A DNA stretch of 64,000 nt from Staphylococcus phage Machias. The DNA lies in sequence record MW349128.1, one strand, 5' to 3'. Both the position numbers and the translations under genes were made by a program. The notes beneath the pieces were generated by a model. It made no database searches. It was not told the origin of the DNA and worked only from the letters and a program-made list of their open reading frames with translations. Shown one piece after another: positions 17,806 to 41,710 of the stretch. Each line of letters begins with the position of its first letter. Position 1 is the first letter of the stretch.

Positions 17806-18957
17806 ATGAAAGTAGATATGATAGATATTGAACAAGTCATAACTGATACAAATGCTAAAGAAGTAACCAATCCTGTATTTTTCGATTCAGGTATACTACC
17901 AAAAGAAGATGGTTTATTTTCATATGATATATTTGGTTTAATAGGTACTCCTGAAAGAAAAACCAATTTAGGTTGGATTAATTTAAAGGATAAATACCTT
18001 AATCCGGTGGCTTATAAAGCATTAAAAGATTTAGATAAAAATATTGAACTATGTATTCAGGGTTCAGAGTATTTTAAAGTAGAAAAAGGTCAATTAGTTC
18101 CTTCAGAAGATGGAGATACTGGACTGAATTTCTTATATGAAGTATTTGATGATTTAAAATTTAGAAAGAATGATTCTCGTATTAGATCTGAAAAAATTGA
18201 TATGATTAAAAATACAGATAAGCAAAAAATATTTGTAGATAAATGGCTAGTAATACCTGCTTTTTATAGAGACTTTAATCCTAATGAAACTTCAGGAGAA
18301 ATTCAAGATACTGAAGAAGTTAATAATATGTATTCTTCTATTATACGTTCTGTAGATGCTATTAGTTTTAATTCTTTTGGTTTTATTGCTAACAGTACTA
18401 AATATAATATACAAAATACATTATTTGAAATATATCAGAAATTTACTTCAGGAGAATTATCAGGTAAAACTGGTTTTATGCAAAAACGTATATTGGGTAA
18501 AACAGTAGATAATAGTACTCGTGCAGTTATTTCTTCACCTAAAATTAATTCGAATAGATGGGATGAAATGCAGATAGAGTTTGGTGAGTTAGGTGTACCA
18601 TTAACTCAATTAGTTACCTTATTTTTACCATTCTTTAATAAGTATATAATTGATTTTATTGAACTTCATAAAGATGCTTTCCAAACAGCTACTGGAAATG
18701 ATGAGAAAGAATTATCATTAGAAGAAGTGTATGAACAATTCGATGATAAATCTATTAAGAATATGCTAGAATTCTTTATTAAAGATCCTAATGAAAGATT
18801 TAGTCCTATATATGTAAATGATAGAGAAGGTAAACGCCATAAAGTTAAATTATTTGAAAAAACTTTGGGTAGAGATTTTACTGTAATTGATTTACTTTAT
18901 ATTGCTGCAACCGAAATAGTAGAAGATAAGCATGTTATGTATTCAAGATATCCGATT
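17806..18957 (+). CDS. multisubunit RNA polymerase beta-prime-like subunit, N-terminal half, exon 1
   Basis: PKEDGLFSYDIFG ~ E. coli KPERDGLFCARIFGP; GKTGFMQKRILGKTVDNSTRAVIS ~ [23 protein letters not shown]; exon ends MYSRYPI (NRAPTLH region) at CGATT 18953..18957. Confidence 0.75.
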
Positions 18958-19152
18958 AATAAAATGGTCGCTGCTTAAAGTGATTTAAGTTGATAAACAT
19001 TGTTAATTGCTGAAATACTATTAATAAAGTTAATCAGCATCAATTAAATATAATTGTTCAACGACTAAATGCAATGATACTATTTAATAGTATATAATAT
19101 AGTCTAATTTATATAATACTTATATAAATATAATAAATGCGAAAATTTCTTG
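18958..19152 (+). mobile_element. group I intron C (compact, no ORF)
   Basis: first 31 nt identical to intron A (ATGGTCGCTGCTTAAAGTRATTTAAGTTGAT, IGS GGTCG); cores TTAATTGCTGAAA / AATCAGCATC / GTTCAACGACTAAATGC / ATATAGTCTA; 3' end approximate. Confidence 0.65.
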
Positions 19153-19341
19153 AACGTAGCACCTGCTAAAATTAAAATATTAACTACTGTTGATACTATT
19201 CCAGAAATAATTTTAGATGATATAGTATTAAAAGATTACCCTAAAGTAGTAAGAGAGTATCCTGTTGATGAAGATATTTTCTTAGATACTGCAATCATAC
19301 ACAATTCATATGCTCAAGCACTTGGTGCAGATTTTGATGGC
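19153..19341 (+). CDS. RNAP beta-prime N-half, exon 2 (ends ...AQALGADFDG = first part of the NADFDGD catalytic motif)
   Basis: in-frame segment ending GADFDG immediately before intron D; start boundary uncertain (ORF track 19150..19365 reads through into the intron). Confidence 0.5.
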
Positions 19342-19491
19342 AAAATTTTATATTACCATCATTAAATAATATTAATTGCTGGAAAATCTAATAAGATAAT
19401 CAGCATCAACTTAATAAAAGTTGTTCAACGACTAAATATATTACTAAAGAAGATATAGTCTAATTATATGTAAATACATGTATATAAAATG
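19342..19491 (+). mobile_element. group I intron D (compact, no ORF)
   Basis: ATTAATTGCTGGAAAA / AATCAGCATCAAC / GTTCAACGACTAAATAT / GATATAGTCTAATT; omega-G at 19491. Confidence 0.65.
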
Positions 19492-19635
19492 GATATGATT
19501 TCAATACGCTCTTTATGGTCTGTAGAAGCAAATAAAGAAGCTGATAAACTTATTAATAAGAAAACTAATTACTTAAACTACACAGGAAATAGTATACGTG
19601 GAGTTGGTAATGAGAGTAAGTTTGTATGCTCTCAA
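19492..19635 (+). CDS. RNAP beta-prime N-half, exon 3 (DMISIRSLWSVEANKEADKLI...)
   Basis: aligns to E. coli [21 protein letters not shown] directly after NADFDG; the 3' end could lie anywhere 19606..19635. Confidence 0.5.
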
Positions 19636-19760
19636 TAAATTTCATTAATTGCTGGAAAAACAAAATTAATCAGCATCAACTTAATAAAAGTTGTTCAACG
19701 ACTAAATATGAAAATGATTTAAATATCATAAGATATAGTCTAATTATCATAAATATATGG
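19636..19760 (+). mobile_element. group I intron E (compact, no ORF)
   Basis: ATTAATTGCTGGAAAAA / AATCAGCATCAAC / GTTCAACGACTAAATATG / GATATAGTCTAATT, nearly identical to intron D; boundaries approximate. Confidence 0.6.
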
Positions 19761-19781
19761 TACAAGCTTTATATTCTTTAA
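19761..19781 (+). CDS. RNAP beta-prime N-half, tiny terminal exon (YKLYIL-stop ~ E. coli LGLYYMT), ends the N-terminal beta-prime polypeptide
   Basis: in-frame continuation after the omega-G at 19760; stop at 19779..19781; the beta-prime C-half is encoded separately at 39794. Confidence 0.3.
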   Translation, partial: YKLYIL

Positions 19782-19802
19782 CTAAAGAATAATTTAAAAA
19801 TT

Positions 19803-19912: not shown

Positions 19913-20545
19913 GTGATTATTTTGAATATTAATGATTATAGATATTTTAAAATGGATGATGGATTAATGCAAATCCATAAAGATAAAATTAAAGGAAATA
20001 TTACAGACTTGATAGGAATGTTGCATATTGATGTAGATCGTATCAAGGAAGATAATTTTCTAAATTTAGGTTTAGAAAGATTAAATATAAATATTTCTTT
20101 TGATAATCTTGAATTGGTATGGGAAAATATAAAATTTCAATTTAGTTTGTCGATAATTATTTTTGCTGAAAAACAAGAAAATGAATTAAATGAATATACA
20201 AGTAGTATAAGATTTTTTTATGATAATGAAGAAAGACAAATGGAGAGTGATAGATTTAAAAAACTTATATTAAATGTTGATTATATAAAAAATTTTGTAA
20301 GTTTAATGGTAGATGATAAAGAAATCGATGATTTAACAATTTCTATTTTTAATTATGATAAAAATGATTTTCATTTAAAATGTTCTGATATTGTAATTAG
20401 ATACTTATACGATTTAGAAAGAAGATTTAATGATAAAGGTTATGATTTGTTATTAAATGGTAAGAATATAAATGAATTAGAAGACAATGAAGAAAAAGAT
20501 ATTGATAAGATTAAGAAATATTTAGTGAAAGAAAATTTTAAATAA
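19913..20545 (+). CDS. tail-family paralogue 1 (C-terminus ...DIDKIKKYLVKENFK)
   Basis: RBS aaaggagaag; GTG/TTG start region; conserved C-terminal tail. Confidence 0.6.
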   Translation: MIILNINDYRYFKMDDGLMQIHKDKIKGNITDLIGMLHIDVDRIKEDNFLNLGLERLNINISFDNLELVWENIKFQFSLSIIIFAEKQENELNEYTSSIRFFYDNEERQMESDRFKKLILNVDYIKNFVSLMVDDKEIDDLTISIFNYDKNDFHLKCSDIVIRYLYDLERRFNDKGYDLLLNGKNINELEDNEEKDIDKIKKYLVKENFK

Positions 20546-20556
20546 GGAATGATAAA

Positions 20557-21219
20557 ATGGATAATATAAAAGTATACAATAATACAATAACTAATCAAAA
20601 ATTTTCTTTAGATAATAATGAAATTGATAATGGTAGATTCTTATATAAAGCTATGGAACAAGTAACAAATAAAAATCAAAAGAATATTGAATTTCTTGAT
20701 AGTAGTTTTCTAGTAAATAATATGCAGATGAATTTCCATTTTTATATTTACTCGGATTTTATTATAAACTTTAAAAATCTAACTGGAAAAGATAAAAATA
20801 TATTAATTAATGGTAATAATTCTGATATAACAAGGGCTTCATTTGTCTGTTTTTATGACAATATTGATAATGAAAGAATATTCCAAATTTATCTAAAAAC
20901 AAAGAAATCTAAAAAGATAAGAAATATATTAAAAGATTATGAAAGTGAGAAATATTTAATTGAAAGAATAATGTTAATTGGTGAAGATATATCTTTTAAA
21001 GTAGATTTTAAAAAAGAATATTTAGATAGTATAGAAGATAATGAATATAAGTCTTTAGACAGTTTGATTCACTATATATTAAAAGATATGTTAATTAATA
21101 TAGATGGAGAATTTATACCTTTTATGGAATTTATTAAAAATTATCTTTATTCTATATCTAAAGAAATTACTGATGAAAAAGAAATTAAGAAATATTTAAT
21201 TAAAGAAAATTTTAAATAA
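20557..21219 (+). CDS. tail-family paralogue 2 (...ITDEKEIKKYLIKENFK)
   Basis: RBS taaggaatg; conserved tail. Confidence 0.65.
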   Translation: MDNIKVYNNTITNQKFSLDNNEIDNGRFLYKAMEQVTNKNQKNIEFLDSSFLVNNMQMNFHFYIYSDFIINFKNLTGKDKNILINGNNSDITRASFVCFYDNIDNERIFQIYLKTKKSKKIRNILKDYESEKYLIERIMLIGEDISFKVDFKKEYLDSIEDNEYKSLDSLIHYILKDMLINIDGEFIPFMEFIKNYLYSISKEITDEKEIKKYLIKENFK

Positions 21220-21236
21220 TGGAGTTGAAATAGATA

Positions 21237-21722
21237 ATGATATATTACAAAAATAAAGTAAATGGTGAAATATATGAAGTTAATAATATTCATAGAAAAG
21301 ATGATGCTTTTTATTATGTGTTTGGTAATGAATTTAAAAAAGAGAATTCGTCTTTTTATAGATCTGATGGTAAAAAGATTGACCTATATGATGAAGATGT
21401 AGGAAGTATAAAATTGGAGTTTTTCTTAATTTACGGTTTTATTAATCTTCATTTAACTACGCACATTTCTTGGGATCTTAATAGTATTCCTTTTATACCT
21501 AAAAATATAGATTTAACAAACCAAAATCTTGTCATATCAGACTCTTCAATTGATCTTTATTATTTATTTTATAAAAGATTATGTTATGCGATAGATGTAA
21601 ATATGACACATTATAATATTCCATTAGAAAAATTTAATTTTGATAATGAAGATATATTTGAAATAATTTCAGAAGATTGCAAAGAAGTAAAAGATTTTAA
21701 AGTTAGAAATCATTTTAAATAA
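21237..21722 (+). CDS. tail-family paralogue 3, divergent tail (...KEVKDFKVRNHFK)
   Basis: RBS tggagttg; divergent but recognisable tail. Confidence 0.55.
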   Translation: MIYYKNKVNGEIYEVNNIHRKDDAFYYVFGNEFKKENSSFYRSDGKKIDLYDEDVGSIKLEFFLIYGFINLHLTTHISWDLNSIPFIPKNIDLTNQNLVISDSSIDLYYLFYKRLCYAIDVNMTHYNIPLEKFNFDNEDIFEIISEDCKEVKDFKVRNHFK

Positions 21723-21735
21723 GGAGGAATTATTA

Positions 21736-22407
21736 ATGGAAGGTTATGATTTTGATTTATATATAACAAATAGGGATTTGAAAGATAATCATTTTATGAA
21801 AATAAATAAAGATAGGTATAATAATGATAGAGACTATATTGAAAGAGTAAATACTATCAATATGATAAAATTATTAACTCATGTCTCTTATCCTGATTAT
21901 GAAAATATTATATCATTTAATGTTGACTGTAAACTGAAATTAAGAGGTTTTAATGATTATAAAGATATTAAGTTATCTTATTATCAAGAAGTAGAATCAA
22001 AATCAACTATTATTGCCGGAATATCATTTGTAAAAACTGAATTAAATTTAATAAGTAAAGAGAAAGATAATAGATATCTAACAGATGAATTATTGTATGA
22101 GTATGATATGATGAAAATAAATACAAGTATAAATAATAAACTTAATACAATTAAATTAACTAAAAATGAAGCCACTGCTTTGAATAGTATTAGTCAGAGA
22201 AGTCCTAAATTTCATTTATCACTTGATAAGTTTAGAAGAGAATTCTTAAAGATGATAACTGAATTAAATAAGTATGAAGATATACAGTTTTTAATTGATG
22301 GAACGTATTATAGTTTAGAAGATATCAATTTATACAATAAAGATTTATTTAGAACTGCTACTGATAAGGAATTCAAGAATTATTTAGTTAAAGAAGGATT
22401 TAGATAA
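21736..22407 (+). CDS. tail-family paralogue 4 (...ATDKEFKNYLVKEGFR)
   Basis: RBS taaggagg; conserved tail. Confidence 0.65.
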   Translation: MEGYDFDLYITNRDLKDNHFMKINKDRYNNDRDYIERVNTINMIKLLTHVSYPDYENIISFNVDCKLKLRGFNDYKDIKLSYYQEVESKSTIIAGISFVKTELNLISKEKDNRYLTDELLYEYDMMKINTSINNKLNTIKLTKNEATALNSISQRSPKFHLSLDKFRREFLKMITELNKYEDIQFLIDGTYYSLEDINLYNKDLFRTATDKEFKNYLVKEGFR

Positions 22408-22417
22408 AAAAGTGTAT

Positions 22418-22436
22418 TAAATATATATTATAAAAA
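22418..22436 (+). promoter_or_regulatory. promoter-like motif TAAATATATATTATAAAAA inside the paralogue array
   Basis: consensus copy abutting ORF 22444 with no SD (real start probably 22504, which has RBS gaggag). Confidence 0.4.
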
Positions 22437-22503
22437 TGAGATAATGAATCTAACAGAGTTCATTATCTCTAATAATATCTTAAATAGAGGAGATGAAGTT
22501 AAT

Positions 22504-23145
22504 ATGGATAATAATGAATATATAAATAATCATGAATTCTATAAAGTTGATAGTAGAGGACAAATAATAGTAACTAATAAAGATGTTACTAAAGATGAAT
22601 TAAATGTTAATCTATTCAAAGAATTATTTAATTTTAATAATGTTAAGAAAAAAATAGATGAAATTGGTTTATTTTCATTAAAAACCAATAGTATTTTGAT
22701 AAGGGACAAAAATACTTATTACAGAACTAAGAATTCTTATATAGATATAACAGACATGTGCAATAATAATTATTTTGAATTATATTTTGTATTTTCATTA
22801 TTAGATAAAAATGAAAATGGATGCAAGAATATAGGACCTTTTAAAAGTTCAATTAGCAGTCAAGTATTTTCATATACAGCTAAAATTCAAATTAAAAATA
22901 GAGACAATTTGGAACATGAATTAATTTCAAATATAATTGATCTCTTTAGTAGTAAAAAAGAAACAAATTTAATAATATATACAGTTGATTCAGTAGAGGA
23001 TGATATTGATTTTATGACAAGTCGAGAATTTAAGAAAGATTTAATTTTAGAAGAATATACACTCGATGAAATATACAAGGTCTTAGAAAAATTAGAAAGT
23101 GAAAAAGAAATTAAACAATACTTAGTTAAAGAAAATTTTAAATAG
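22504..23145 (+). CDS. tail-family paralogue 5 (...ESEKEIKQYLVKENFK); the ORF track starts it at 22444
   Basis: internal ATG with RBS agaggagatg; conserved tail. Confidence 0.6.
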   Translation: MDNNEYINNHEFYKVDSRGQIIVTNKDVTKDELNVNLFKELFNFNNVKKKIDEIGLFSLKTNSILIRDKNTYYRTKNSYIDITDMCNNNYFELYFVFSLLDKNENGCKNIGPFKSSISSQVFSYTAKIQIKNRDNLEHELISNIIDLFSSKKETNLIIYTVDSVEDDIDFMTSREFKKDLILEEYTLDEIYKVLEKLESEKEIKQYLVKENFK

Positions 23146-23160
23146 AGAGGAGTGAAATAT

Positions 23161-23697
23161 ATGGATTTAAAAAATTCTAGATTTTTAAGAAAAAGTAAAC
23201 ATCATAAAATAATACAATTTAAGCATAATAATATAAATAATGATCATGTATTAGGATTATCTTTATTAATATTATTTACTAATGTTTATATAAGAAGTGA
23301 TTCTGATGATATTAGTATTTATGATTATTTATCAAATGTATACATGAAAATAGATGGTTATTTAAAAGGTCCTTTATCAATAACGCATGGAGACAATAAT
23401 AGCGTATTAGTATATTCTAGAATTAGATTACCATTAGATCTATTTAAATTAAGAGAATACAATGTTAATACTAGATTATACACATATATTCTTCTTGATA
23501 ATTATGAAACTGATAAAGGAGATTTAATTCAATCCGTTGTTAATGCTTCTGATTATATTATTAAGAATGATAGAATTAAATTAAAAATAATTATTGATGG
23601 AATTGAAAAAGATATTGGTGGTATATTAAAATACTTTGATGAAGTTAAAGATGAAAAAGAAATTAAGAAATATTTAGTAGAAAAAAATTTTAAATAA
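23161..23697 (+). CDS. tail-family paralogue 6 (...VKDEKEIKKYLVEKNFK); the ORF track starts it at 23152 (GTG)
   Basis: RBS agagaggag; conserved tail. Confidence 0.6.
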   Translation: MDLKNSRFLRKSKHHKIIQFKHNNINNDHVLGLSLLILFTNVYIRSDSDDISIYDYLSNVYMKIDGYLKGPLSITHGDNNSVLVYSRIRLPLDLFKLREYNVNTRLYTYILLDNYETDKGDLIQSVVNASDYIIKNDRIKLKIIIDGIEKDIGGILKYFDEVKDEKEIKKYLVEKNFK

Positions 23698-23714
23698 TGA
23701 AAGAGGTAATTAAA

Positions 23715-24332
23715 ATGAATGAATCATTATATGTATCTGATATTTTAGAATATAGTTTCATTGATAAAAAGAGTCTTTCTAGAAAAGAATTATTTGATAT
23801 ATCTTTTGATCAATTTTTCAAACATCCAGGCTGTACTGGTTATGATGTTAAAAATGTTCGTCTTTGGATAAATTCTATGGATGGTCTAATTCTAAGATTC
23901 GGTTATGATATGAATAATCTTTTTTATGTAAATGAATTTGATCTTTTCGTAGATAAAAATGATGGTCAATATGAATTTAGTTTTGTATTAGATATTCCAG
24001 CGTTTTCAAAAAAAGAAGTTCACTGTGAAATAGGACCTTTTGTATCTAGAGAAGGTGAAATTGAATTTTATTTTAATGATACAGAAATATATACTGAAGG
24101 AAAAACTTTACTAGACAAAGCTAAAGAATACTTGACTAGAGATATATTTAATAAAAATGGTTCTGCATTTAATGTCTTTTCATTAAATAACGAAGACAAT
24201 ATTCATGATTACAAAATAAGTAAAGAGGATATAAAAGAAATCTATAATTTAAATATTATAGATGAACTATTTAAAGAAGTAACGGATGAAAAGGAAATTA
24301 AAAATTACTTAGTCAAGAAAGGTTTTGAATAA
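23715..24332 (+). CDS. tail-family paralogue 7 (...VTDEKEIKNYLVKKGFE); the ORF track starts it at 23697
   Basis: RBS aagaggtaat before ATG 23715; conserved tail. Confidence 0.6.
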   Translation: MNESLYVSDILEYSFIDKKSLSRKELFDISFDQFFKHPGCTGYDVKNVRLWINSMDGLILRFGYDMNNLFYVNEFDLFVDKNDGQYEFSFVLDIPAFSKKEVHCEIGPFVSREGEIEFYFNDTEIYTEGKTLLDKAKEYLTRDIFNKNGSAFNVFSLNNEDNIHDYKISKEDIKEIYNLNIIDELFKEVTDEKEIKNYLVKKGFE

Positions 24333-24333
24333 T

Positions 24334-25011
24334 ATGATTGATTTTAAATTATACAAAAATATAGATAATGGAAAATATATAGAAGCAAAAGATGGTATAG
24401 AAAAATATATTAGATCTTTTTCATTTATTAACTATGTGGATGATAATCTATACTTAGTGAAGCATGAAAAATATACAAAAGACGACTATATATTGAGACA
24501 TCAAGGAATGACTAGAAATTTCATTGTAATTAATCACAATAACATTATGTATAGAATAAAACACATAGAATTGACTATTCGGTTGAAGCTTAATCATGAA
24601 GCTATAATTAATATTAAACTTACACCTACAGCTGCAACTCTTAATAAATTTGAAAGTGTTGGAAATTTCACAAAAGTAAGAAACTTATTTTATAACCGGA
24701 AATTATTTAAATATGAAAATTATCCTAAATTTGAATATGATTATAAAGAAGAAGATCAGATTTTCTTTAGTGAAATGTTTGAAGCGGTATTAAAAGAAAT
24801 TGAAAATGATGATATTGATTTTTATGTAATTAATGAAGAAATTATAGAAGAATTTGAAGAAAATAAGAATAAAATAAAACTAGAAAATTTCTCGAAGTAT
24901 AAAGATGGTACATTAGAAGATTATAATATATTAAATTTCAGTAAGAAATTTATTGAAATTAAAGATGAGAAAGAAATTAAAAACTATTTAGTAAATAAAA
25001 ACTTTAGGTAA
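24334..25011 (+). CDS. tail-family paralogue 8 (...IKDEKEIKNYLVNKNFR); the ORF track starts it at 24325 (TTG)
   Basis: ATG 24334 with RBS aaaggtttt; conserved tail. Confidence 0.6.
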   Translation: MIDFKLYKNIDNGKYIEAKDGIEKYIRSFSFINYVDDNLYLVKHEKYTKDDYILRHQGMTRNFIVINHNNIMYRIKHIELTIRLKLNHEAIINIKLTPTAATLNKFESVGNFTKVRNLFYNRKLFKYENYPKFEYDYKEEDQIFFSEMFEAVLKEIENDDIDFYVINEEIIEEFEENKNKIKLENFSKYKDGTLEDYNILNFSKKFIEIKDEKEIKNYLVNKNFR

Positions 25012-25057
25012 TTTAATTAACTTACTTTTATAATATATGAAAGAAGTGATTAACTAA

Positions 25058-25843
25058 ATGTCTAATGAAAATAACGGAATTGATTTAATTTCACAAATTA
25101 ATGATATGATGGAAGAATATAAAATGCTAGTTGGATTTAAATCTAAAATGGAACGTAAAGAAATTCAATTAGAAGAAAGAATTAGAGATTTAACTAAGAA
25201 TCTGAAATATCCTAAACATACATTTGTATCTAATATGGAAGCTAATATTATTAGTGTAGAAAAAGAAATTAAAGACACTATTATGCAAATGAAAAATGTT
25301 AAAAAAGATATTATTGACTTAACTATGAAAGCTCAGAAAATGGCTGAAGATGATGAATCTGAAGATAACTATAAAGTGCTTGCTAAAAATGTACTTAGTC
25401 AGCTTAATAATATGTCTAATAAAGATATATTAAACAGCATGACAGAAAATGAAGAAGATACTGCTGAAGATGAAGAAGATTTGAAAGATAAATTAGATCA
25501 AACTTTAGAAAATCTAAATAAAGATATAGATGAAGATGAAAAAGAAATTGAAAAAAGAGAGGAATTACAAAAAGAAGTTAATGAACTTAAACATCAAGAC
25601 TTAGCTTCTATTTTAAAAGTATATAAAGGCACATTGCAATTCTTTGTATTAGGTGATACTCCAAATGAATATGAACTAGTAATTGCTGATAATGAAATGA
25701 ATATCATTGAAGAAGATGAGCTTGAAGATGAATATCCAGAATTATTTACTATGACTAGAGATCTTATCTTTGAAGATGTTGAAGGTAATGATGAAATAGT
25801 TAAAGATGAATTTGGAAATATTTATCAAAAAGCAGAATTTTAG
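25058..25843 (+). CDS. acidic coiled-coil protein, not a tail-family member, embedded in the array
   Basis: ORF with RBS gaaagaagtg; E/D/K-rich heptads. Confidence 0.5.
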   Translation: MSNENNGIDLISQINDMMEEYKMLVGFKSKMERKEIQLEERIRDLTKNLKYPKHTFVSNMEANIISVEKEIKDTIMQMKNVKKDIIDLTMKAQKMAEDDESEDNYKVLAKNVLSQLNNMSNKDILNSMTENEEDTAEDEEDLKDKLDQTLENLNKDIDEDEKEIEKREELQKEVNELKHQDLASILKVYKGTLQFFVLGDTPNEYELVIADNEMNIIEEDELEDEYPELFTMTRDLIFEDVEGNDEIVKDEFGNIYQKAEF

Positions 25844-25851
25844 ATTATTTT

Positions 25852-25882
25852 GCCCATAATATATCGCATTAATATATTATGG
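25852..25882. terminator. hairpin CCCATAATATAT / CGCATTA / ATATATTATGGG
   Basis: 12-bp perfect inverted repeat after the stop at 25843. Confidence 0.6.
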
Positions 25883-25911
25883 GTATTTATTATATAGGAG
25901 ATGAATTAAAT

Positions 25912-26037
25912 ATGTTAAAAAGATTATATGAATTATTAACTAGAAAAAGATTTGAAAAGAAACTATATGAATTTAAATTTAGTTATCAAGACCATGAGCA
26001 TCTTAATGAAGTTCATGAATTTAGTAAAAACAATTAA
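25912..26037 (+). CDS. small ORF (41 aa) not in the ORF track
   Basis: ATG with RBS taggagatg; basic peptide MLKRLYELLTRKRFEKKLYEF... Confidence 0.3.
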   Translation: MLKRLYELLTRKRFEKKLYEFKFSYQDHEHLNEVHEFSKNN

Positions 26038-26040
26038 GGA

Positions 26041-26451
26041 GTGATATTATTGCTATCAGAATACAGATTAAATAGTAATAAAGAAAATATTAAACAACTA
26101 TTAAGAGATTATGGTTTTAGAAAAGATTCTTATACTAAAGCGTTATTATATAGAAAGCGTGTGACTGATCCAAATGATATTTTGTTCATAGAAGCTGAAG
26201 TGGTTATTGAAACTAATTCAGATCTAGTTAAATTAAATTATTATGATAATAAACATAATAGATTTAATCCTTCTAATGAATCGCCAGAGGTTCAAAAAGG
26301 TTTAAGTATATTAGAAGACATGAAAGAAAAAGAATTATTAATTGAACCAGAATTAACTCAAAATAAAGAAGAAAAAGAAGTTCTTGATAGACTTAAAGAA
26401 CAACGTGAAGAAATGGAAAATGGACAAGTATCACCTAATTCTGAAGATTAG
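26041..26451 (+). CDS. hypothetical protein (136 aa), not a tail-family member
   Basis: ORF with RBS ttaaggagtg; TTG start. Confidence 0.5.
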   Translation: MILLLSEYRLNSNKENIKQLLRDYGFRKDSYTKALLYRKRVTDPNDILFIEAEVVIETNSDLVKLNYYDNKHNRFNPSNESPEVQKGLSILEDMKEKELLIEPELTQNKEEKEVLDRLKEQREEMENGQVSPNSED

Positions 26452-26453
26452 AA

Positions 26454-26472
26454 TAAATATATATTATAAAAA
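26454..26472 (+). promoter_or_regulatory. promoter-like motif TAAATATATATTATAAAAA
   Basis: consensus copy immediately upstream of hairpin 26477..26506 and gene 26532. Confidence 0.45.
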
Positions 26473-26476
26473 CGTT

Positions 26477-26506
26477 ATCCCAATACTATTAAATTAGTAT
26501 TGGGAT
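26477..26506. terminator. conserved-family hairpin (ATCCCAATACT / ATTAAATT / AGTATTGGGAT)
   Basis: member of the CCCAATAC stem family; sits between the promoter motif and an RBS, so it may be a 5'-leader structure as well as a terminator. Confidence 0.65.
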
Positions 26507-26531
26507 TATTATAATAAAAGGAGTTAAATAA

Positions 26532-27311: not shown

Positions 27312-27312
27312 T

Positions 27313-32813: not shown

Positions 32814-33282
32814 ATGGGTCGTTTTATAAAATCAACATATTTGAATAAAAAAGAAACATCTAATAAAAAAGAGAAAGTAGTAATGGTTGTTAAGGAAGAA
32901 GATGGAACTAAGAAACATATGGAAATAGTAGATCCTATGATGCATTATTATGTAACTAAAGATGAACATTGGTTACCACCTAATATAGTTGTAGGTTCTA
33001 TGGCTAAAGAAAAAGTTAGAACTGTACACTGTAAACATAAAGATGTTATTAAATCTATAGTTAGAGAAGCAGGTAATGCTCAAGATAAATCAGAATACGA
33101 TAGAATATTATCTTCAGGTAATTATGAAGAGTTTAGAAAATTAAAAGATTTTCATTTAATGAATAATGTTCATGGATCTGATATTAATATTGAAGATTAT
33201 AATATTAATGAGTATATCAAACAAAACTTAGATAGTAAAGTTGGAATTGATATATGTCTATTTGATATAGAGGTAGATGGAT
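32814..33282 (+). CDS. DNA polymerase family B, N-terminal subunit, exon 1 (Exo I motif FDIEVDG)
   Basis: RBS aggagg; ICLFDIEVDG ~ T4 gp43 ANCDIEVTGD; the exon end is approximate, chosen so the product reads DIEVDG-F-PEPGMAE against T4 DIEVTGDKFPDPMKAE. Confidence 0.7.
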
Positions 33283-34070
33283 CGCAAACAGTTGGGTTAA
33301 TTTAGGTAGCTCAATTAAAAAATTATTAATTGCTGAAAAGTTTAAAAATAATCAGCATCACTAATTTAGTGTTCAACGACTAAATATAATAATATAATTC
33401 AAATATACTTCCTTTATAAAAGGAGGAAAATAATGAAAGAAATATGGAAAGACATTAAAGATTTTGAAAATTACTATAAAATATCCAATACTGGTAAAGT
33501 TAAATCGGTTTCAAGATATGTATATAATGATTCTTTAAAAGGTAAAGATAAAAGAATGCTTATTAAAGAAAGAGTATTAAAAACAAGAATAAATAAAAAT
33601 GGTTATGAAGATGTTCAATTATATAGAAATAATAAGAAGCATACAAGAAGAATACACCGTTTAGTTGCAGAGAATTTTATCGAAAATAAAGATATTGATA
33701 AAAATGTAGTTAATCATATTGACGGTAATAAATTAAATAACAATTTATCTAATTTAGAATGGATGTCAGTATTAGAAAATAATTTACATGCTATAGAAAA
33801 TAATCTTCATAAAACTGATAAAATGGAAGAATCATTAAAAAAGAGAAGAAAACCAGTAGCACAAATAGATAAAGAAACAGATAAAATTATAAAAGAATAT
33901 GAAAGTGCTAAATTTGCAGCGGAAGAATTAAATATAGATAGAAAAGGAATACAAGCAGTTGCAAATGGTTATAGAAATAGTAAAACTTACAAAAATTTTA
34001 AATGGAAATATATTTGAATTTAAAAGATATAGTCTAATCTTTATACAATTGTATAAAGTTAATATAAATG
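33283..34070 (+). mobile_element. group I intron F with an HNH homing endonuclease ORF inserted between P7 and P7'
   Basis: ATTAATTGCTGAAAAG / AATCAGCATC / GTTCAACGACTAAATAT before the ORF and GATATAGTCTAATC (34026..34036) after it. Confidence 0.65.
33433..34017 (+). CDS. intron-encoded HNH homing endonuclease (NUMOD4-like N-terminus, HNH_3 core, C-terminal NUMOD1/IENR1-like HTH)
   Basis: MKEIWKDIKDFENYYKISNTGKVKS; VNHIDGNKLNNNLSNLEW; RBS aaaggagg. Confidence 0.8.
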   Translation: MKEIWKDIKDFENYYKISNTGKVKSVSRYVYNDSLKGKDKRMLIKERVLKTRINKNGYEDVQLYRNNKKHTRRIHRLVAENFIENKDIDKNVVNHIDGNKLNNNLSNLEWMSVLENNLHAIENNLHKTDKMEESLKKRRKPVAQIDKETDKIIKEYESAKFAAEELNIDRKGIQAVANGYRNSKTYKNFKWKYI

Positions 34071-34360
34071 TCCCTGAACCAGGAATGGCTGAAATTAATA
34101 TTATAACTGTAGTTGATTGGAGTAAACGTAAATGTTTAACATTTGCATTAAAATATGATACAGATAATTATAATGAAGTTATGACAGATAAAACTAAATT
34201 AATGGAAGATCTAAATAATATTTATAATAATAAAGATAGCGAGATTGGAGAAGATTTAGGTTTAGAATTTGAAATATATGAATTAGATACTGAAATGGAA
34301 ATTATTAAATCATTCTTATACTATATTAATGAAATTAGTAAGCCTGATATATGTACGGCT
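34071..34360 (+). CDS. DNA polymerase family B, N-terminal subunit, exon 2 (ends ...KPDICTA before Exo II)
   Basis: PEPGMAEINIITVVDWSKRKCLTFAL ~ T4 PDPMKAEYEIDAITHYDSIDDRFYVFDL; the exon end ACGGCT pairs with intron IGS GGTCGT. Confidence 0.7.
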
Positions 34361-35447
34361 TGAGAAACACACTGGGTCGTGTAAAACCTTTTTAATTGCT
34401 GGAACGTCCTTATTGCTTAGTGAGCTACAACGTGACTGGTAACGGTGAGCGTGATATGCTTAAAAATCATTAAGATTGGATAATCAGCAGCGAAGACTCT
34501 ATAAATCCTTTTCAAGAAAGGATGATTAATATGAATTATAAACCGAAAAATAAAAAGAAAATAACCAATGAAGATTGGAAAGAAATTGTCAAAGAATTAG
34601 GTAATGATGAATATGAAGTATTAGGAGATTACCTGGGTACAAAAAACAAAATTGAAATGAAACATAAAATATGTGGAGAGACATTTTTTATGACACCAAA
34701 TAATTTTAAAATAAGTGAAAATCGTTGTCCTATCTGTTCTATAAAGAAAGTTTCAGAAAAACGTAGGAAGAAGACAAAGGAATTAAATGAAAAAATAAAA
34801 GAAGTTCTTGATGATTCTTATGAATTTAAATTGAACGGTAATGAAACTGTTCATAATAAAATAAAAGTAAAACATAAACAATGTGGAAACGAATACAGTG
34901 TTTTAATAAGACATATAATTTATGATAAAAATAAATGTAGTAAATGTCAAGATTTTGTTAATTCAAGAGATGAAAAAGAAATAAATAAATTCCTTATAGA
35001 AATGGGCGTAGATTTCGAAAGACAATATAAATTTGAAGATGACAAAGTAAAAAATCTTAGATTTGACTTTGCAGTTTTTAAAAATAACGAAATCAAACTT
35101 ATAGAATTTGATGGTGAATTTCATTTTAAAGAAAAATTTGGTGGACCAAAAGCATTTGAGAAAGTAGTATACAATGACTATCTCAAAAATAAATTTTGTT
35201 TTGACAATAACATAAAATTACTTAGAATACCTTATTGGGAAAGTAATAATAAAAAAGAAATAATAAAAAGGTTTATAGAGTAACGTTCAACGACTATCGA
35301 AAAGTGAGCATTATGTCGAGAGGACCTATTGCAATATAACTGAGTAGAGTACACTTTTAATTAAGTGGAAAAAGAAGGGTATGTAGAGTAACGTCTATAT
35401 ACAAGATATAGTCTATCTTTCAATAAAATATATTTTATTGAAATTTG
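34361..35447 (+). mobile_element. group I intron G carrying a homing endonuclease ORF between P6 and P7
   Basis: P1 pairing ACGGCU/GGUCGU; TTAATTGCTGGAACG ... TAATCAGCAGC; after the ORF come GTTCAACGACTATCG ... AGATATAGTCTATC and a P9 hairpin; omega-G at 35447 immediately before TGG AAT (WN of Exo II). Confidence 0.7.
34522..35283 (+). CDS. intron-encoded homing endonuclease, tandem Zn-finger-like DNA-binding modules plus Vsr/PD-(D/E)xK-like (DUF559-like) nuclease domain
   Basis: two HKxCGxxF...NxxxxxRCPICS / KCSKC repeats; C-terminal LRFDFAVFKNNEIKLIEFDGEFH; homologous to ORF 63260..64000(-). Confidence 0.55.
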   Translation: MINMNYKPKNKKKITNEDWKEIVKELGNDEYEVLGDYLGTKNKIEMKHKICGETFFMTPNNFKISENRCPICSIKKVSEKRRKKTKELNEKIKEVLDDSYEFKLNGNETVHNKIKVKHKQCGNEYSVLIRHIIYDKNKCSKCQDFVNSRDEKEINKFLIEMGVDFERQYKFEDDKVKNLRFDFAVFKNNEIKLIEFDGEFHFKEKFGGPKAFEKVVYNDYLKNKFCFDNNIKLLRIPYWESNNKKEIIKRFIE

Positions 35448-36389
35448 TGGAATCTAGATTTTGACTTTGCAACTATATTTGAAAGAATTAAAGTTAATGG
35501 AGAAGATCCAGCTGATTATTTCTGTTCTAAAGATTTACAAGATAAAAAAGCTTATTATAGATTAGATAAAAACGCTACAGATGCAGCTAATAGATCATCT
35601 ACGTTCGAAACTAACTCATACACTAACTGGATTGACCAATTAGCTTTATATGCAAATGTAAATAAACCAAATGGTGTTATGGAATCAGTTAAGTTAAATG
35701 ATGTTGGTGAAAAAGAAACTGGTATTAAGAAAGATGTATATGAAGGATCTATCTCTGATTTACATTTTAGAGATTATTATACATTCATTCTTTATAACAT
35801 TAAAGATACTGTATTAACTGCTTTAATAGAAAAGAACACTAATATGTTTGATTTATTATTCTCTATTGTAGATATGACTAGAACTAGACCAAGTAAAGCA
35901 CTTAAGAAAACTATTTGTTTAAGAAATCGTAGTTCTGTCTTCTTTGAAAATCAAGGATATGTATTAAGTAATAATCACTCTAAAATACTATCTGATCCAA
36001 ATGCAGATAAAATACGTGGTGGATTTGTAGCTAATATGACATTAATAGAACGTATGGGTGATATTTTAGTTAAAGGTAGAGATATTAGATCTAATAGATT
36101 ATTTAGTAATGTTTGTGACTTTGACTTGAGTTCACTATATCCTTCTATTATTAGAGGATTTAATATAACACCTGAAGGGCATATAGGTAAAATTCAAATA
36201 CAAGATAAATCTACAATGACAGTTCCTAAGTATGAAGAAGACAAATTAAATTACGACTTTAATACTGAATTTATTAGTAAATTTAACAGTCAAGATAGTG
36301 TAGCATTTGCTCAAGAATTTCATGGTTTACCTCCATTGAATATTGCAGCTAAGAAAGTATCTGATAAAATAAAAAGTAAAGGAGCTTAA
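35448..36389 (+). CDS. DNA polymerase family B, N-terminal subunit, exon 3 (Exo II WNLDFDF, Exo III YNIKDTV, motif A [12 protein letters not shown]); the polypeptide ends 70 aa after motif A
   Basis: colinear with T4 gp43 GWNVESF / YNIIAVY / [23 protein letters not shown]; stop at 36389 with no intron signature after it. Confidence 0.8.
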   Translation, partial: [313 protein letters not shown]

Positions 36390-39687: not shown

Positions 39688-39731
39688 GATATAAAAATAA
39701 TTGAATAATGGTTTATTACAAATCATTATTC

Positions 39732-39749
39732 AATTATATATTATAAACA
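39732..39749 (+). promoter_or_regulatory. promoter-like motif AATTATATATTATAAACA
   Basis: close match to the consensus, 45 nt upstream of the beta-prime C-half gene. Confidence 0.4.
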
Positions 39750-39793
39750 TGTAACAATATTTGATTTATTTATACTTAAGGAGAGATTAGGAT

Positions 39794-41710
39794 ATGAGTG
39801 AAGAAAAGTTAGTTTTGGATTTAAAATTGGGTAAATATAATAATTATTTACATTCAGATAATTATTATGAAATAATAGAAGAATTAAAGCAGGATATTAT
39901 TAATAACCCTAAAGATAGAATGAATGACTATTTTGAAGATAATATTTCTAAAAGTAATTATTTAACATTATTAATTTTAGGAAAACCTTTTAGAGAAATG
40001 AATAAGAAATTTACAGAAGAGTATTTAGTTAATCCAACTAATATTAATGAATACTATGATTATTTTGATAAAATTGTAGTGAACTTTATTAAAGAAGGAC
40101 ATGATCCTATTAAAATCAGTCAATCAATAGCTTATATCATTGATGAACTTACTATATTCTCAAATGAATATATTCTTCCTGTAGATGGACCTTCTATATC
40201 TTTATATGATATTATGAGATTAGCTAATGAAGATAAAGAAATTGAAAGATTAATTAATTTTGATAATGATGATATTGATCCTAATTTAACTTATCAACAA
40301 ATTATTAATGAAGTTCAAAAACCTAATATGGATAATCTTATTAAACATATTAAGATGGATAAAGAAAATGATTATAAAACTTTCTTAGAGTCAGGAACAG
40401 GTATAAATAAAATACAATTGAATGAGGTATTAAGTTTTGTAGGATTTAAACCTGATATTCGTGGAGATGTTGTTACTGATATTATTGATACTTCATTTAT
40501 GCGTGGATTAAAGAATACAACTCAATTTGCTATTGATGCAGAATCTTCTTTAAATGCATTAATGAACTCTAAGAATAAAGTTAGAGAATCAGGATACTTA
40601 AACCGTAAGATTACATTATTAACTTCAGATTTAAAACTATCAGATAATCATGATTGTGGTAGTAAGCATTTACTTTACTTTAATGTAGATAGTCAAGAAA
40701 AACTAGATCGTATTAATGATAGATATTATTATGATGATAACGATCAAGAATTTAAATTAATTGATAGTAGAAATGATGTTCATTTAATAGGGCAAATTGT
40801 ACCATTAAGATCTCCTATAACATGTGCTGAACCAAATGGTAAAATATGTCAAATGTGTTATGGAAGAAGACTATATGATATTAATAGAAATTTAGCAGTA
40901 GGTATCATAGCTACATTACAGTTAACAGAACCTATGACACAGAAATTACTTTCAACAAAGCATCTTCAAGCTGTTCAACTTTCTGAATTCTCATGGTCAG
41001 ATATATTTAATGAACACTTTGAATTCTCTGGTGATAATATTATTCCTCGTGATGAGAAAACTAAAGTTATTATAGATGATATGATTATTAATGAAGATAT
41101 TGATTATGGAAAATATAAAGCTAAATCATTTAAATTTAAAATAGGTACTAAAGTACATGAAGTTAAATCACCTGTTATTCTTAGAATACCGGATCAGAAA
41201 TTTGATTCAATTGAAAAATTCTACAATGAAGATGAAAATGCTTATGTATTTAATATGAAAGATTTAGGAGAGAATTTCTTATTTAATATTAAAATTAAAA
41301 ATGAAGGTGTCGCAGATCCACTTCTAAAAATTCGTTCTATATTAGAAAGAAGTAATTTTATTAAGAATGATTATGAAGAAAAAGATTATCAAAGAATGTT
41401 TAATGATGTAATGGATCTATTATTAAAATCAGGTACAGATGTTATGTCAGTTCATGTTGAGACTATTATTCGTAATATGGTATTCTTAAATGATACTATA
41501 TATAAAGATAGAGTGAAATATAAAGATCCTGACTTTAATCCTAAAATTACTTTACGTAATGTAGGTAACTCTATATTAAATTCACCTTCACCAGTACATT
41601 CATTGATATTTGAAAATGTTCGTGCTCAGCTTACTACAGATGAAACTAATGGATTCTTCAGTAAAGATGATGAATCTATGTTCGATCCGTTATTTGATTT
41701 TGATATTTAA
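39794..41710 (+). CDS. multisubunit RNA polymerase beta-prime-like subunit, C-terminal half (bridge-helix / trigger-loop region)
   Basis: [27 protein letters not shown] ~ E. coli [52 protein letters not shown] ~ [46 protein letters not shown]...[22 protein letters not shown] ~ [21 protein letters not shown]...[21 protein letters not shown]. Confidence 0.75.
   Translation: [638 protein letters not shown]

Follow-up and report, generated by a model that had tools for sequence, protein, structure and literature searches.

Probable virion and non-virion RNA polymerase subunit genes, with probable small ORF-less group I introns in the virion ones, in an AR9-like Staphylococcus jumbo phage

The phiKZ-like phages, which build a phage nucleus and have DNA without uracil, follow a two-enzyme logic with split β and β′ subunits and include the virion β′-like gp178 group. 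Group I introns, for which a U·G pair at the 5′ splice site is near-universal, are also known from phages, with three in orf142 of Twort. In AR9, g145 is annotated as the virion N-terminal β′ gene (three exons), g154 as a non-virion C-terminal β′ gene, and g189 as the virion β gene (six exons); the structure of the AR9 non-virion enzyme has been solved (PDB 7S00, 7S01, 7UM0 and 7UM1). The Staphylococcus phages of the MarsHill group have been described as having five subunit genes for each enzyme, virion and non-virion, and many of these genes are disrupted by introns (bioRxiv 10.1101/2020.12.14.422802); a β′ split site of the cyanobacterial type is described in PMC7598289. The introns of the Jug gut jumbo phages average ~206 nt, and their splicing was confirmed by metatranscriptomes (PMC12880540).

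The records nearest to the window, that is, the whole 64,000-nt stretch of DNA analysed here, are those of PB50 (vB_StaM_PB50, an AR9/PBS1-like Staphylococcus jumbo phage, 96.4% DNA identity) and AH12, both at ~96%, and S6, PALS_2, MarsHill, Madawaska, UFV_DC4, SA1 and LY01 follow at ~80%. Staphylococcus jumbo phages (PB50, AH12, MarsHill, Madawaska, Machias, S6, PALS_2, UFV_DC4, SA1 and LY01) have the same genes in the same order, although intron content varies by isolate. Protein identity to PB50, whose annotation already lists the corresponding genes as coding for RNA polymerase (RNAP) subunits, is 99.8% for the C-terminal β′ half (C-half), 100% for the β exon and 97.8% for the N-terminal β′ half (N-half). 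The window phage belongs to the species of vB_StaM_PB50 or stands very near it, and by sequence relationship we place it in the AR9-like branch as a Staphylococcus-infecting jumbo phage, as a preliminary description of this DNA had supposed. That description had also recognized non-canonical RNAP subunits of the AR9/PBS1/phiKZ type, which agrees with the one-to-one orthologs of all three genes in AR9 (g145, g154 and g189) and with matches to phiKZ-like proteins. The AR9 proteins differ from those of the window in showing 33–50% identity and in coming from a phage of Bacillus rather than Staphylococcus; for phiKZ-like proteins the identity is ~25–28%. Very probably, the window belongs to an AR9/PBS1-like phage with two multisubunit RNAPs, the N-half and β being virion subunits and the C-half a non-virion subunit, and the three insertions in the N-half gene are group I introns that lack an ORF. 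Three of ~10 RNAP subunit genes lie in the window (Table 1).

Weak similarity to bacterial β′ and β in PDB searches could also point to host rpoB/rpoC fragments caught by a mobile element. The probability of such an origin is practically negligible: the bacterial matches are partial, with E-values of 1e-13 or worse, whereas the phage matches are full-length; the GC content is ~24%, the genes lie in synteny with those of PB50, MarsHill and AR9, and portal, DNA polymerase and virion genes sit between the RNAP genes. No full-length colinearity with bacterial rpoB/rpoC was found, which rules out this origin. The preliminary description had named best hits to the host genes as the result that would speak against it, and its reading stands because the best matches are phage RNAP genes.

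Table 1. Coordinates of RNAP-related features in the window.
Feature	Coordinates	Strand	Description
N-half exon 1	17806..18956	+	Codons 1–383 and 2 nt of Ile384; contains the GKTGFMQKRILGKTVDNSTRAVI motif; placed by DNA alignment to the intronless UFV_DC4/SA1 genes
N-half intron 1	18957..19139	+	183 nt, phase 2, putative ORF-less group I; ends in G
N-half exon 2	19140..19341	+	ENFLNVAPAK...ALGADFDG
N-half intron 2	19342..19491	+	150 nt, phase 0, putative ORF-less group I, between the G and D codons of DFDG-D; ends in G
N-half exon 3	19492..19617	+	DMISIRSLW...GVGNES
N-half intron 3	19618..19759	+	142 nt, phase 0, putative ORF-less group I; ends in G
N-half exon 4	19760..19792	+	VQALYSLTKE and stop codon
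Early-promoter-like TTATATATTATA	39734..39745	+	Similar to the early-promoter core of AR9/MarsHill; lies 49–60 nt upstream of the C-half start
Predicted non-virion RNAP C-terminal β′	39794..41710	+	638 aa, uninterrupted; bridge helix, RSPITC...CYGR, trigger loop TEPMTQ
β last exon	61459..62217	-	TYEDSS...KDMI and stop codon; second DPBB domain, VGDKISFYGACKT, PLSIVSRM
β intron	62218..62397	-	180 nt, ORF-less group I; exon ...UAUGGU pairs with IGS GCC; P2 cap GUAA; CM R1 129.5 bits
β exon	62398..62799	-	402 nt; TQAKHVIPTKTNSKPLVGSG...GQILA...SSYG
β intron	62800..63011	-	212 nt, ORF-less group I; exon ...ACUGGU pairs with IGS GCC; P2 cap GUAA; CM R1 117.1 bits
β exon	63012..63170	-	159 nt; VRQLSYDS...SPRIGMTG
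β intron, 3′ part	63171..64000	-	Larger intron running off the window; endonuclease-like ORF 63260–63871

Compared with the uninterrupted 503-aa orthologs of UFV_DC4 and SA1, the N-half gene contains exactly three insertions, the number given earlier. The spliced gene is a 1512-nt coding sequence for 503 aa, which aligns gap-free with the intronless UFV_DC4 and SA1 proteins at 85% identity; PHROG 2986 matches this protein end to end (E = 3e-109), and Pfam RNA_pol_Rpb1_2, which extends across junction 2, is detected in the spliced protein only. As claimed earlier, the ORF from 17806 holds SGKTGFMQKRILGKTVDNSTRAVI, GADFDG follows in a downstream fragment, and an intron interrupts the catalytic Asp motif, the insertion falling exactly between the G and D codons. 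The gene encodes the first double-psi β-barrel (DPBB-A) with its catalytic DFDGD loop and stops after DPBB-A at the cyanobacterial-type split site, which is the split position of rpoC1–rpoC2 in cyanobacteria and plastids, after ...LYxxT (in the window, QALYSLTKE and stop). The end read previously as YKLYIL lies in the wrong frame, in an ORF running through an intron; after intron 3 the frame reads ...GNES followed by VQALYSLTKE, the true C-terminus, with the stop ending at 19792. Exon 1 is ~43–44% identical to exon 1 of AR9 g145, which in turn matches the UFV_DC4 ortholog with E = 1.8e-106 and the spliced protein of the window with E = 7e-99. The number of introns in this gene varies among Staphylococcus jumbo phages (0, 1, 3, 4 or 5), and every version splices to 503 aa. 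An example of a peptide spanning a splice junction is ALGADFDGDMISIR.

If the interruptions were unspliced, the N-half would be a decaying pseudogene or, as in the PB50 annotation, three or four separate small polypeptides. PB50 and AH12 indeed list the fragments as separate CDSs, Rfam at its gathering threshold (50 bits for RF00028, with introns 1–3 all below it) found no intron, and the UFV_DC4 authors likewise report no introns with Rfam (PMC10638138). We nevertheless regard this reading as extremely unlikely, because excision of the three insertions yields exactly the protein of the intronless relatives without an indel, exon 4 consists of 10 codons without a start codon, and one break lies inside the catalytic loop. 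Moreover, the insertions end in G and contain a group I core that covaries, the same sites hold endonuclease-containing introns in MarsHill, Madawaska and AR9, and the viable isolates PB50, AH12 and LY01 carry these insertions in this presumably essential gene. Published annotations of related phages miss some introns; that of MarsHill gives three exons where four exist.

By their sequence features, we assign the three interruptions to the group I introns, and we infer splicing from the restored frame together with the intron structure. In intron 1, the 5′ exon end CCGAU pairs with IGS GUCG and the P2 cap is GUGA; RF00028 gives a partial match (22.4 bits, E = 0.003), and the covariance model (CM) R1 scores 133.7 bits, with P3 6/6 paired, P6 of 6 bp and P8 of 7 bp. 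Intron 2 (RF00028 34.2 bits, E = 7.8e-7; CM R1 101 bits) has no P2, its P8 is shrunk to CUAAAG without a hairpin, and exon GAUGGC and IGS ACCAUC form a C·A pair at its 5′ splice site, as in PB50 and AH12. MarsHill has a U·G pair at this site, and P1 covaries (AUGGC/ACCAU in the window versus ACGGU/GCCGU in MarsHill). Intron 3 (RF00028 27.8 bits, E = 6.6e-5; CM R1 117.5 bits) lacks P2 and the P5 stem; its P1, GAGAGU/GCUCUC, includes a U·G pair, its P10, read from the sequence, is GUACAA/UUGUAU, and its single-sequence fold is no better than that of shuffles (z = −0.9). It is uncertain whether the N-half introns are autonomously self-splicing rather than protein-assisted, because of the missing P8 hairpin and the C·A pair of intron 2 and the missing P5 and poor fold of intron 3.

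About ten ORF-less group I introns lie in the window, three of them in the β gene. In this family, covariation of the base pairs is strong: P3 is 6/6 paired in 9/9 members through six different sequences, and P6 and P8 differ among members through compensatory changes. Over 21 distinct sequences, pairing holds in 97.4% of cells, and both partners vary in 22 of 27 pairs; because the alignment had been fitted to the model, these counts lean towards the structure. None of 500 shuffles reached the observed level, and slid controls were 25–53% paired. IMG/VR jumbo contigs contain the same core motif and 150–190-nt matches to the model in abundance.

The three mini-introns of the N-half gene are shared, position for position, with PB50. 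In AR9, too, the virion subunit genes have group I introns at or near the PIE-N region, D(F/Y)DG-D and β codon ~978 (hyphens mark the sites), but those at the N-terminal β′ sites carry homing endonuclease genes, whereas those of the window are ORF-less; at or near the site of intron 1, introns with such genes occur in both MarsHill and AR9. The ORF-less introns of the AR9 β gene are also longer (~300–390 nt) than the ORF-less introns of the window (142–212 nt). The latter most likely derive, in endonuclease-less form, from mobile introns. In the DNA polymerase-exonuclease gene, the window intron carries an endonuclease and the PB50 version is a 172-nt mini-intron.

The exon map of the β gene, which runs on the minus strand from 61459 to beyond 64000, was drawn against the intronless UFV_DC4_00067. 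Its last exon matches Pfam RNA_pol_Rpb2_6 and is 100% identical to the PB50 'viral RNA polymerase beta subunit' and 50% identical to AR9 g189. GQILA and PLSIVSRM are present as described before, the motif then given as DKPLVGTG actually reads SKPLVGSG, and the replacement of GRHGNKG by SFYGACKT is borne out by the alignment of VGDKISFYGACKT to VGDKVAGRHGNKG of the plastid β subunit. The cyanobacterial and plastid RNAP differs in being a cellular enzyme with α and ω and canonical motifs. The protein ends ~180–200 aa short of bacterial or plastid β rather than the ~100 aa estimated earlier. The preliminary description missed the three introns of this gene in the window. The largest of them, an extra endonuclease-bearing intron relative to other Staphylococcus jumbo phages, gives a weak CM match at 63226–63351; PB50 has no intron there, and at this codon AR9 g189 is interrupted by an HNH-endonuclease intron.

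The C-half, in which ...CYGR and TEPMTQ were correctly noted, matches Pfam RNA_pol_Rpb1_5, chain D of the AR9 non-virion RNAP (7S00_D, E = 1.1e-78, residues 31–633) and the phiKZ non-virion gp74 (7OGP_D, E = 7e-18), and its best AR9 locus is g154. We identify it by orthology as the non-virion C-terminal β′ (AR9 gp154). As in AR9, where an early promoter, AAATATATATTAT, is annotated about as far from g154, an early-promoter-like element precedes the gene; support for TTATATATTATA as a putative early promoter of the C-half is weak, since elements of this type match twice in the window against 0.75 expected.

The labels virion and non-virion used here are drawn from orthology to AR9 and phiKZ and from the proteomics of a relative: mass spectrometry found the β ortholog of UFV_DC4 in virions (PMC10638138). 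On this basis the 17.8-kb gene is assigned to the virion N-terminal β′ (ortholog of AR9 g145) and the minus-strand gene to the virion β (ortholog of AR9 g189). A homolog of the N-half in the phiKZ-like phage KTN4 is annotated as a virion-associated β/β′-like protein, and exon 1 (17806–18978) matches the solved non-virion N-terminal β′ chain with E = 4e-12 only. The preliminary description took the N-half and C-half as parts of one β′ and, with β, of a single split RNAP; all three are RNAP homologs, and the N-half ends and the C-half starts at about the same β′ position, where the split follows DPBB-A. Such a single enzyme is very unlikely, since the AR9 orthologs of the N-half and β are annotated as virion and that of the C-half is part of the solved non-virion enzyme, the group has five subunit genes for each enzyme, and the C-half segment has a separate virion paralog among these phages. 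The N-half and C-half would not assemble together, because their orthologs belong to different enzymes. That paralog, the virion mid-β′ MarsHill gp162, is 25% identical to the C-half over the bridge-helix to trigger-loop stretch and adjoins the virion β gene, a position equivalent to that just beyond the right end of the window; a virion mid-β′ of this kind would be the true continuation of the N-half.

Overall, earlier work on this phage group has essentially described the arrangement (bioRxiv 10.1101/2020.12.14.422802; PMC7598289). As in Twort and Jug, a single essential gene holds several short group I introns; the smallest of the window (~140–150 nt) fall under the Jug average and lack P2 and P5 or P8. 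Only this very small size, the absent P2, P5 and P8 helices and the C·A pair at one 5′ splice site are modestly new. In splicing, the IGS would pair with the last 4–6 exon nucleotides as P1, exogenous G would attack the 5′ splice site, and the exons would be ligated once the intron's terminal G had docked in the conserved pocket of P7 (GACUA/UAGUC); removal of all three introns would restore the 1512-nt frame. The N-half protein would then pair with the virion mid-β′ protein. By analogy with AR9 and phiKZ, from general knowledge, the virion RNAP would be packaged, injected and transcribe early genes, the non-virion subunit genes among them, and the non-virion RNAP would then transcribe late genes, including those of the virion RNAP.

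Among the sequences retrieved by megablast, the region 17500–42000 matched Staphylococcus jumbo phages only, with vB_StaM_PB50 (PB50) and AH12 as the closest relatives (~96%), followed at ~80% by PALS_2, SA1, UFV_DC4, Madawaska, S6, MarsHill, and LY01. The window is very AT-rich (GC ~24%), and its gene order (DNA polymerase, RNA polymerase (RNAP) β′, an array of hypothetical genes, virion-associated protein, DNA polymerase exonuclease, portal, RNAP β′, lysins, RNAP β) agrees with the annotations of PB50 and MarsHill. This phage and its Staphylococcus jumbo-phage kin are relatives of the Bacillus phages AR9 and PBS1. The proposal of non-canonical RNAPs of the AR9/phiKZ type in a Staphylococcus jumbo phage was correct at the level of the group, as the best matches are annotated phage RNAP orthologs; an origin of these genes as host-derived rpoB/rpoC fragments was rejected. 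Such polymerases have already been published for Staphylococcus jumbo phages (bioRxiv 10.1101/2020.12.14.422802; PMC7598289), and the RNAP finding itself is already known, the 96%-identical PB50 being in GenBank with its RNAP genes labelled.

The bodies of the ORFs in the tandem array are barely similar, and 12 of the 14 end in a common C-terminal tail, (T)DEKEIKxYLVKxNFK, which may act as a signal for sorting, packaging, or processing. The copy number of the array differs from that in PB50.

The two β′ genes of the window, the interrupted one (N-half) and the 638-aa one (C-half), had been read in the preliminary description as halves of a single β′ subunit; they belong to different enzymes, as their AR9 orthologs are the virion g145 and the non-virion g154. 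The AR9 annotation gives g145, which has three exons and two intron endonucleases, as "virion RNAP subunit, β′ N-terminus", g154 as "non-virion RNAP subunit, β′ C-terminus", and the six-exon g189 as a virion RNAP β subunit. The best AR9 locus for the N-half in tblastn is g145, with 43–44% identity to its exon 1 (E 1.8e-106 for the UFV_DC4 ortholog and 7e-99 for the spliced protein of the window), whereas exon 1 of the window gene reaches only E 4e-12 against the solved AR9 non-virion N-β′ chain. The KTN4 homolog is annotated as virion-associated. Judged by this homology, the N-half is a virion-type N-terminal β′ (AR9 g145 / phiKZ gp178 type). For the C-half, the best AR9 locus is g154; residues 31–633 of 638 align with residues 45–630 of 631 of the AR9 non-virion chain 7S00_D (E 1.1e-78), and the phiKZ non-virion gp74 (7OGP_D) is matched with E 7e-18. 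The Pfam family RNA_pol_Rpb1_5 (E 1e-8) covers the segment of the bridge helix and trigger loop with the CYGR and TEPMTQ motifs. These comparisons place the C-half as the non-virion C-terminal β′ (AR9 gp154 / phiKZ gp74 type).

In MarsHill, a protein of 408 aa, gp162, is annotated separately as "viral RNA polymerase beta-prime"; its gene adjoins the virion β gene with divergent transcription, and the protein covers the β′ segment corresponding to residues 263–381 of the C-half (25% identity, E 3e-7). The existence of a separate gene for the same segment indicates that the real continuation of the N-half is a mid-β′ gene, which by analogy with MarsHill would lie just beyond the right end of the window; the C-half is the non-virion paralog of this virion mid-β′. 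The sequence TTATATATTATA, 49–60 nt upstream of the C-half start, resembles the annotated early promoter of AR9 g154, a statistically weak likeness given two matches against 0.75 expected in the AT-rich window. If the cycle follows that of AR9 and phiKZ, the injected virion RNAP would transcribe early genes, including those of the non-virion subunits, and the non-virion RNAP would then transcribe late genes, including those of the virion RNAP.

The minus-strand fragments of the β gene carry SKPLVGSG, GQILA, VGDKISFYGACKT, and PLSIVSRM. Identity of the last exon is 100% with the "viral RNA polymerase beta subunit" of PB50 and 50% with AR9 g189; the UFV_DC4 ortholog, an uninterrupted protein of 1417 aa, is present in virions by mass spectrometry (PMC10638138). 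In a HMMER alignment with a plastid β subunit, VGDKISFYGACKT is aligned to VGDKVAGRHGNKG, which bears out the suggested replacement of GRHGNKG by SFYGACKT. The early end of the subunit also stood, but not the size of the deficit: instead of the ~100 aa first estimated, 22 residues remain in the query after the alignment vs. ~206 in the plastid chain, so that β ends ~180–200 aa early. The near-universal GRHGNKG belongs to the second double-psi β-barrel; SFYGACKT is shared by the ortholog of UFV_DC4, and the exon with this motif is 86–100% identical across Staphylococcus jumbo phages. The virion β stops ~20 residues past PLSIVSRM, as does AR9 g189, so that this subunit either lacks the canonical clamp-anchoring regions of the β C-terminus or has them encoded at another location. 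The first intron of this gene in the window, which bears an endonuclease, is not found in PB50, its presence or absence being a polymorphism of near-identical phages; the intron that AR9 g189 has at this codon (~aa 978) encodes an HNH endonuclease.

The structure of the N-half was derived from the uninterrupted 1512-nt, 503-aa ortholog of UFV_DC4 and SA1, relative to which the DNA alignment reveals three clean insertions; the boundaries in the table were set by this alignment and group I rules. The spliced coding sequence comprises 1512 nt and 503 aa and is aligned to both intronless proteins without gaps at 85% identity. The motifs named for the two β′ genes in the preliminary description proved real: ORF 17806–18978 carries SGKTGFMQKRILGKTVDNSTRAVI, the fragment 19150–19365 terminates in ...ALGADFDG, the fragment 19489–19638 starts with (M)DMISIRSLW, and CYGR and TEPMTQ are read in the C-half. 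Intron 2 interrupts, as had been noticed, the catalytic motif DFDG↓D (arrows mark intron positions), precisely at the boundary of its G and last D codons, and splicing in silico restores GADFDGD, a catalytic loop of the NADFDGD type in the DPBB-A domain. The putative end of the gene at YKLYIL-stop turned out to be the tail of an ORF running through intron 3 in another frame; the true C-terminus, ...GVGNES↓VQALYSLTKE-stop, is colinear with the 503-aa orthologs, and the β′ split site at this point has been described (PMC7598289). No Pfam family matched the unspliced pieces, and the spliced protein is recognized across junction 2 by RNA_pol_Rpb1_2 (25.5 bits, cutoff 25.3) and aligns end to end with PHROG 2986 (E 3e-109). 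The predicted splice-junction peptides are YPIENFLNVAPAK, ALGADFDGDMISIR, and GVGNESVQALYSLTK. Pseudogene decay of the N-half and its further splitting at the protein level were both rejected.

Coordinates of exons, introns, and other features in the window
Feature	Coordinates	Strand	Size	Basis or content
DNA polymerase (B-family, catalytic) intron 1	13409–13587	+	179 nt	ORF-less group I mini-intron
DNA polymerase (B-family, catalytic) intron 2	13823–13996	+	174 nt	ORF-less group I mini-intron
N-half exon 1	17806–18956	+		alignment to intronless orthologs, group I rules
N-half intron 1	18957–19139	+	183 nt	alignment, group I rules
N-half exon 2	19140–19341	+		alignment to intronless orthologs, group I rules
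N-half intron 2	19342–19491	+	150 nt	alignment, group I rules
N-half exon 3	19492–19617	+		alignment to intronless orthologs, group I rules
N-half intron 3	19618–19759	+	142 nt	alignment, group I rules
N-half exon 4	19760–19792	+		alignment to intronless orthologs, group I rules
Tandem ORF array	19913–29734	+		14 ORFs of 136–286 aa
DNA polymerase exonuclease exon 1	~32814–33299	+		
Exonuclease-gene intron 1	~33300–34070	+		group I; HNH/NUMOD endonuclease 33433–34017
DNA polymerase exonuclease exon 2	~34071–34360	+		
Exonuclease-gene intron 2	34361–35447	+		group I; 253-aa zinc-finger ORF 34522–35283
Match to DNA polymerase I intron	35289–35354	+	66 nt	3′ part of exonuclease-gene intron 2
DNA polymerase exonuclease exon 3	35448–36389	+		
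C-half	39794–41710	+	638 aa	
SFYGACKT in virion β	61650–61690	−		
Virion β intron	63171–64000	−		endonuclease-bearing; ORF 63260–63871

At the gathering threshold, Rfam gave no matches in the whole window. In E-value mode, the group I model RF00028 scored introns 2, 3, and 1 of the N-half at 34.2, 27.8, and 22.4 bits (E 8e-7, 7e-5, and 3e-3), none of the three reaching the gathering score of 50 bits; the shortfall reflects how small they are and the peripheral helices they lack, and it weakens the formal assignment by the database but leaves the structural evidence unaffected. The three introns have in common TTAATTGCTG...AATCAGCAT...TTCAACGACTAAAT...GATATAGTCT, and the exact 13-mer TCAACGACTAAAT occurs eight times in the window. 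Their core, UUCAACGACUAAAU...(A/U)(A/U)GAUAUAGUC, resembles the P7 region of Tetrahymena. Anchored dissection was applied to nine members (the window contributed seven, MarsHill two) and showed that P3 is fully paired (6/6) in all nine with six different sequences, that P6 stems of 4–6 bp differ in sequence among the nine, and that P8 stems of 5–8 bp, again with differing sequences, are present in seven; P2 of the 174–212-nt members is capped by GUAA or GUGA. The covariance model built from these nine retrieves members in the window, PB50, MarsHill, and AR9. In the alignment of 21 distinct sequences, which was fitted to this model and is biased towards structure, 97.4% of cells in P3, P4, P6, and P8 are paired, and compensatory changes on both sides are seen in 22 of the 27 pairs; the observed values were not attained in any of 500 shuffles, and slid controls are 25–53% paired. 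Single-sequence MFE folding against mononucleotide shuffles (z = −3.3, −2.6, and −0.9 for the three N-half introns) is not decisive.

The 3′ ends of the N-half introns (...AAAUG, ...AAAUG, ...AUAUG) all have the terminal G (omega G). In intron 1, P1 is CGAU/GUCG with U·G at the 5′ splice site; intron 3 has P1 GAGAGU/GCUCUC, also with U·G, and P10 GUACAA/UUGUAU, and its P5 stem is absent. In intron 2, the exon end GAUGGC faces the guide ACCAUC, resulting in a C·A splice-site pair, likewise in PB50 and AH12; the same site in MarsHill has ACGGU/GCCGU with U·G, and the remainder of P1 covaries. Intron 2 has CUAAAG only in place of P8, with no P8 hairpin. The covarying secondary structure thus identifies the interruptions as group I introns, predicted to be self-splicing. 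The gene identities, orthology, exon–intron boundaries by homology, and covarying structure are established directly; from known group I chemistry, guanosine would attack the P1 splice site, the terminal G of the intron would dock in P7, and the exons would be ligated.

The number of introns in the virion N-β′ gene varies among the Staphylococcus jumbo phages: none in S6, PALS_2, UFV_DC4, and SA1, one in Madawaska, three in the window, PB50, and MarsHill, four in AH12, and five in LY01. For AH12 and LY01, in silico splicing at the predicted sites gives 503 aa, the length encoded directly by the intronless genes, and the exon pieces of MarsHill, Madawaska, and PB50 jointly span residues 1–503 of the UFV_DC4 protein. 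Both of the first two sites hold endonuclease-bearing introns in AR9, as do site 1 in MarsHill and site 2 in Madawaska, and the mini-introns are therefore best read as endonuclease-less derivatives. Introns are crowded at the RNAP active site, with exons down to 15, 14, and 9 nt. The fourth N-β′ intron of AH12 (1822–2002 of its locus) leaves the 15-nt exon GCTGACTTTGATGGC encoding ADFDG, and its splice-site pair is C·A (GGC/ACC), whereas its β-gene paralogs have GGU/GCC. Within ALGAD↓FDG↓D, the five introns of LY01 (1804–2548 of its locus) leave two exons of 14 and 9 nt; for one of these introns (384 nt), the boundary is ambiguous and non-canonical (G at −1).

In the whole window there are ~10 group I introns: two in DNA polymerase, three in virion N-β′, two, both endonuclease-bearing, in the polymerase exonuclease, and three in virion β, for which splice junctions are predicted at 63012|62799 and 62398|62217 on the minus strand. 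The first DNA polymerase intron splits the active-site motif TID↓TDS, and its guide (GUCG) and P2 hairpin are near-identical base for base to those of N-half intron 1, both following ...CGAT. The exonuclease exons were mapped against MarsHill by tblastn, as global MAFFT alignment misplaced them. This gene has no introns in MarsHill, and PB50 has a mini-intron of 172 nt where the second one stands. The 66-nt segment in the second intron is 98.5% identical to the DNA polymerase I intron of phiSA_BS1, phiSA_BS2, and JDF86, unrelated Herelleviridae phages of Staphylococcus, which suggests intron exchange between phage families with a common host.

Introns with a common P1/P2 module are found behind identical short exon words in unrelated genes: guide GUCG after CGAU in DNA polymerase (D↓TDS), β′ (PI↓E), and LY01 β′ (GAD↓F); GCC or ACC after GGU or GGC at two β-gene sites and in AH12 β′; and GCUC(UC) after GAG(AG)U in DNA polymerase and β′ (NES↓V). 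The C·A pair is found in two independent members, intron 2 of the window, PB50, and AH12 (GGC/ACC) and the extra AH12 intron.

In IMG/VR, the long exact pattern TTAATTGCTG...AATCAGCAT...TTCAACGACTAAAT was not found; a shorter core pattern occurs in at least 120 loci, and the covariance model gave 121 matches of 150–190 nt in 80 loci. These matches lie in uncultivated phage contigs of 200–400 kb and are mostly full-length (150–190 nt). One such RNAP β′ gene (locus L033, 6706–7738, minus strand; NADFDGD, PLNADFDGDTVSIR) has five near-adjacent introns spaced only 14–67 nt.

Among self-splicing introns, that of Azoarcus, at 205 nt, is usually regarded as the smallest; literature searches yielded no usable statement on a minimum size for group I introns. 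Small ORF-less group I introns are common to the window and to the Jug phages, for which 2513 introns averaging ~206 nt have been reported with splicing supported by metatranscriptomes (PMC12880540), whereas the smallest in the window measure 140–150 nt. Since such introns have already been reported in jumbo phages at scale, those of the window are extremes of a known kind. The new detail is small: sizes down to 140–150 nt, losses of P2, P5, or P8, two independent C·A pairs, and recurring P1/P2 modules. We put forward with considerable reservation, as a rather improbable reading, that the ORF-less introns of 140–183 nt may be a modular family of near-minimal group I ribozymes, some without P2 plus P5 or P8, which would splice accurately at an essential active-site codon despite C·A and may spread, within a gene as well as from one gene to another, by guide-directed insertion of the reverse-splicing type, not by endonuclease homing.

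The practical value of these results lies in annotation, namely, the exact four-exon structure of the virion N-β′ gene. The records of PB50, AH12, and LY01 list the N-β′ exons as separate small CDSs. The GenBank entry of MarsHill joins three exons and misses the third intron (140 nt; 21169–21308 of its locus) and the 10-codon last exon, so that the C-terminus of the deposited protein is wrong. With default thresholds, Rfam identifies none of the introns in these genomes. If splicing is confirmed, ribozyme researchers could take an interest in this covarying family of very small group I introns, crowded into polymerase active-site codons, with core helices missing and a naturally occurring C·A splice-site pair.
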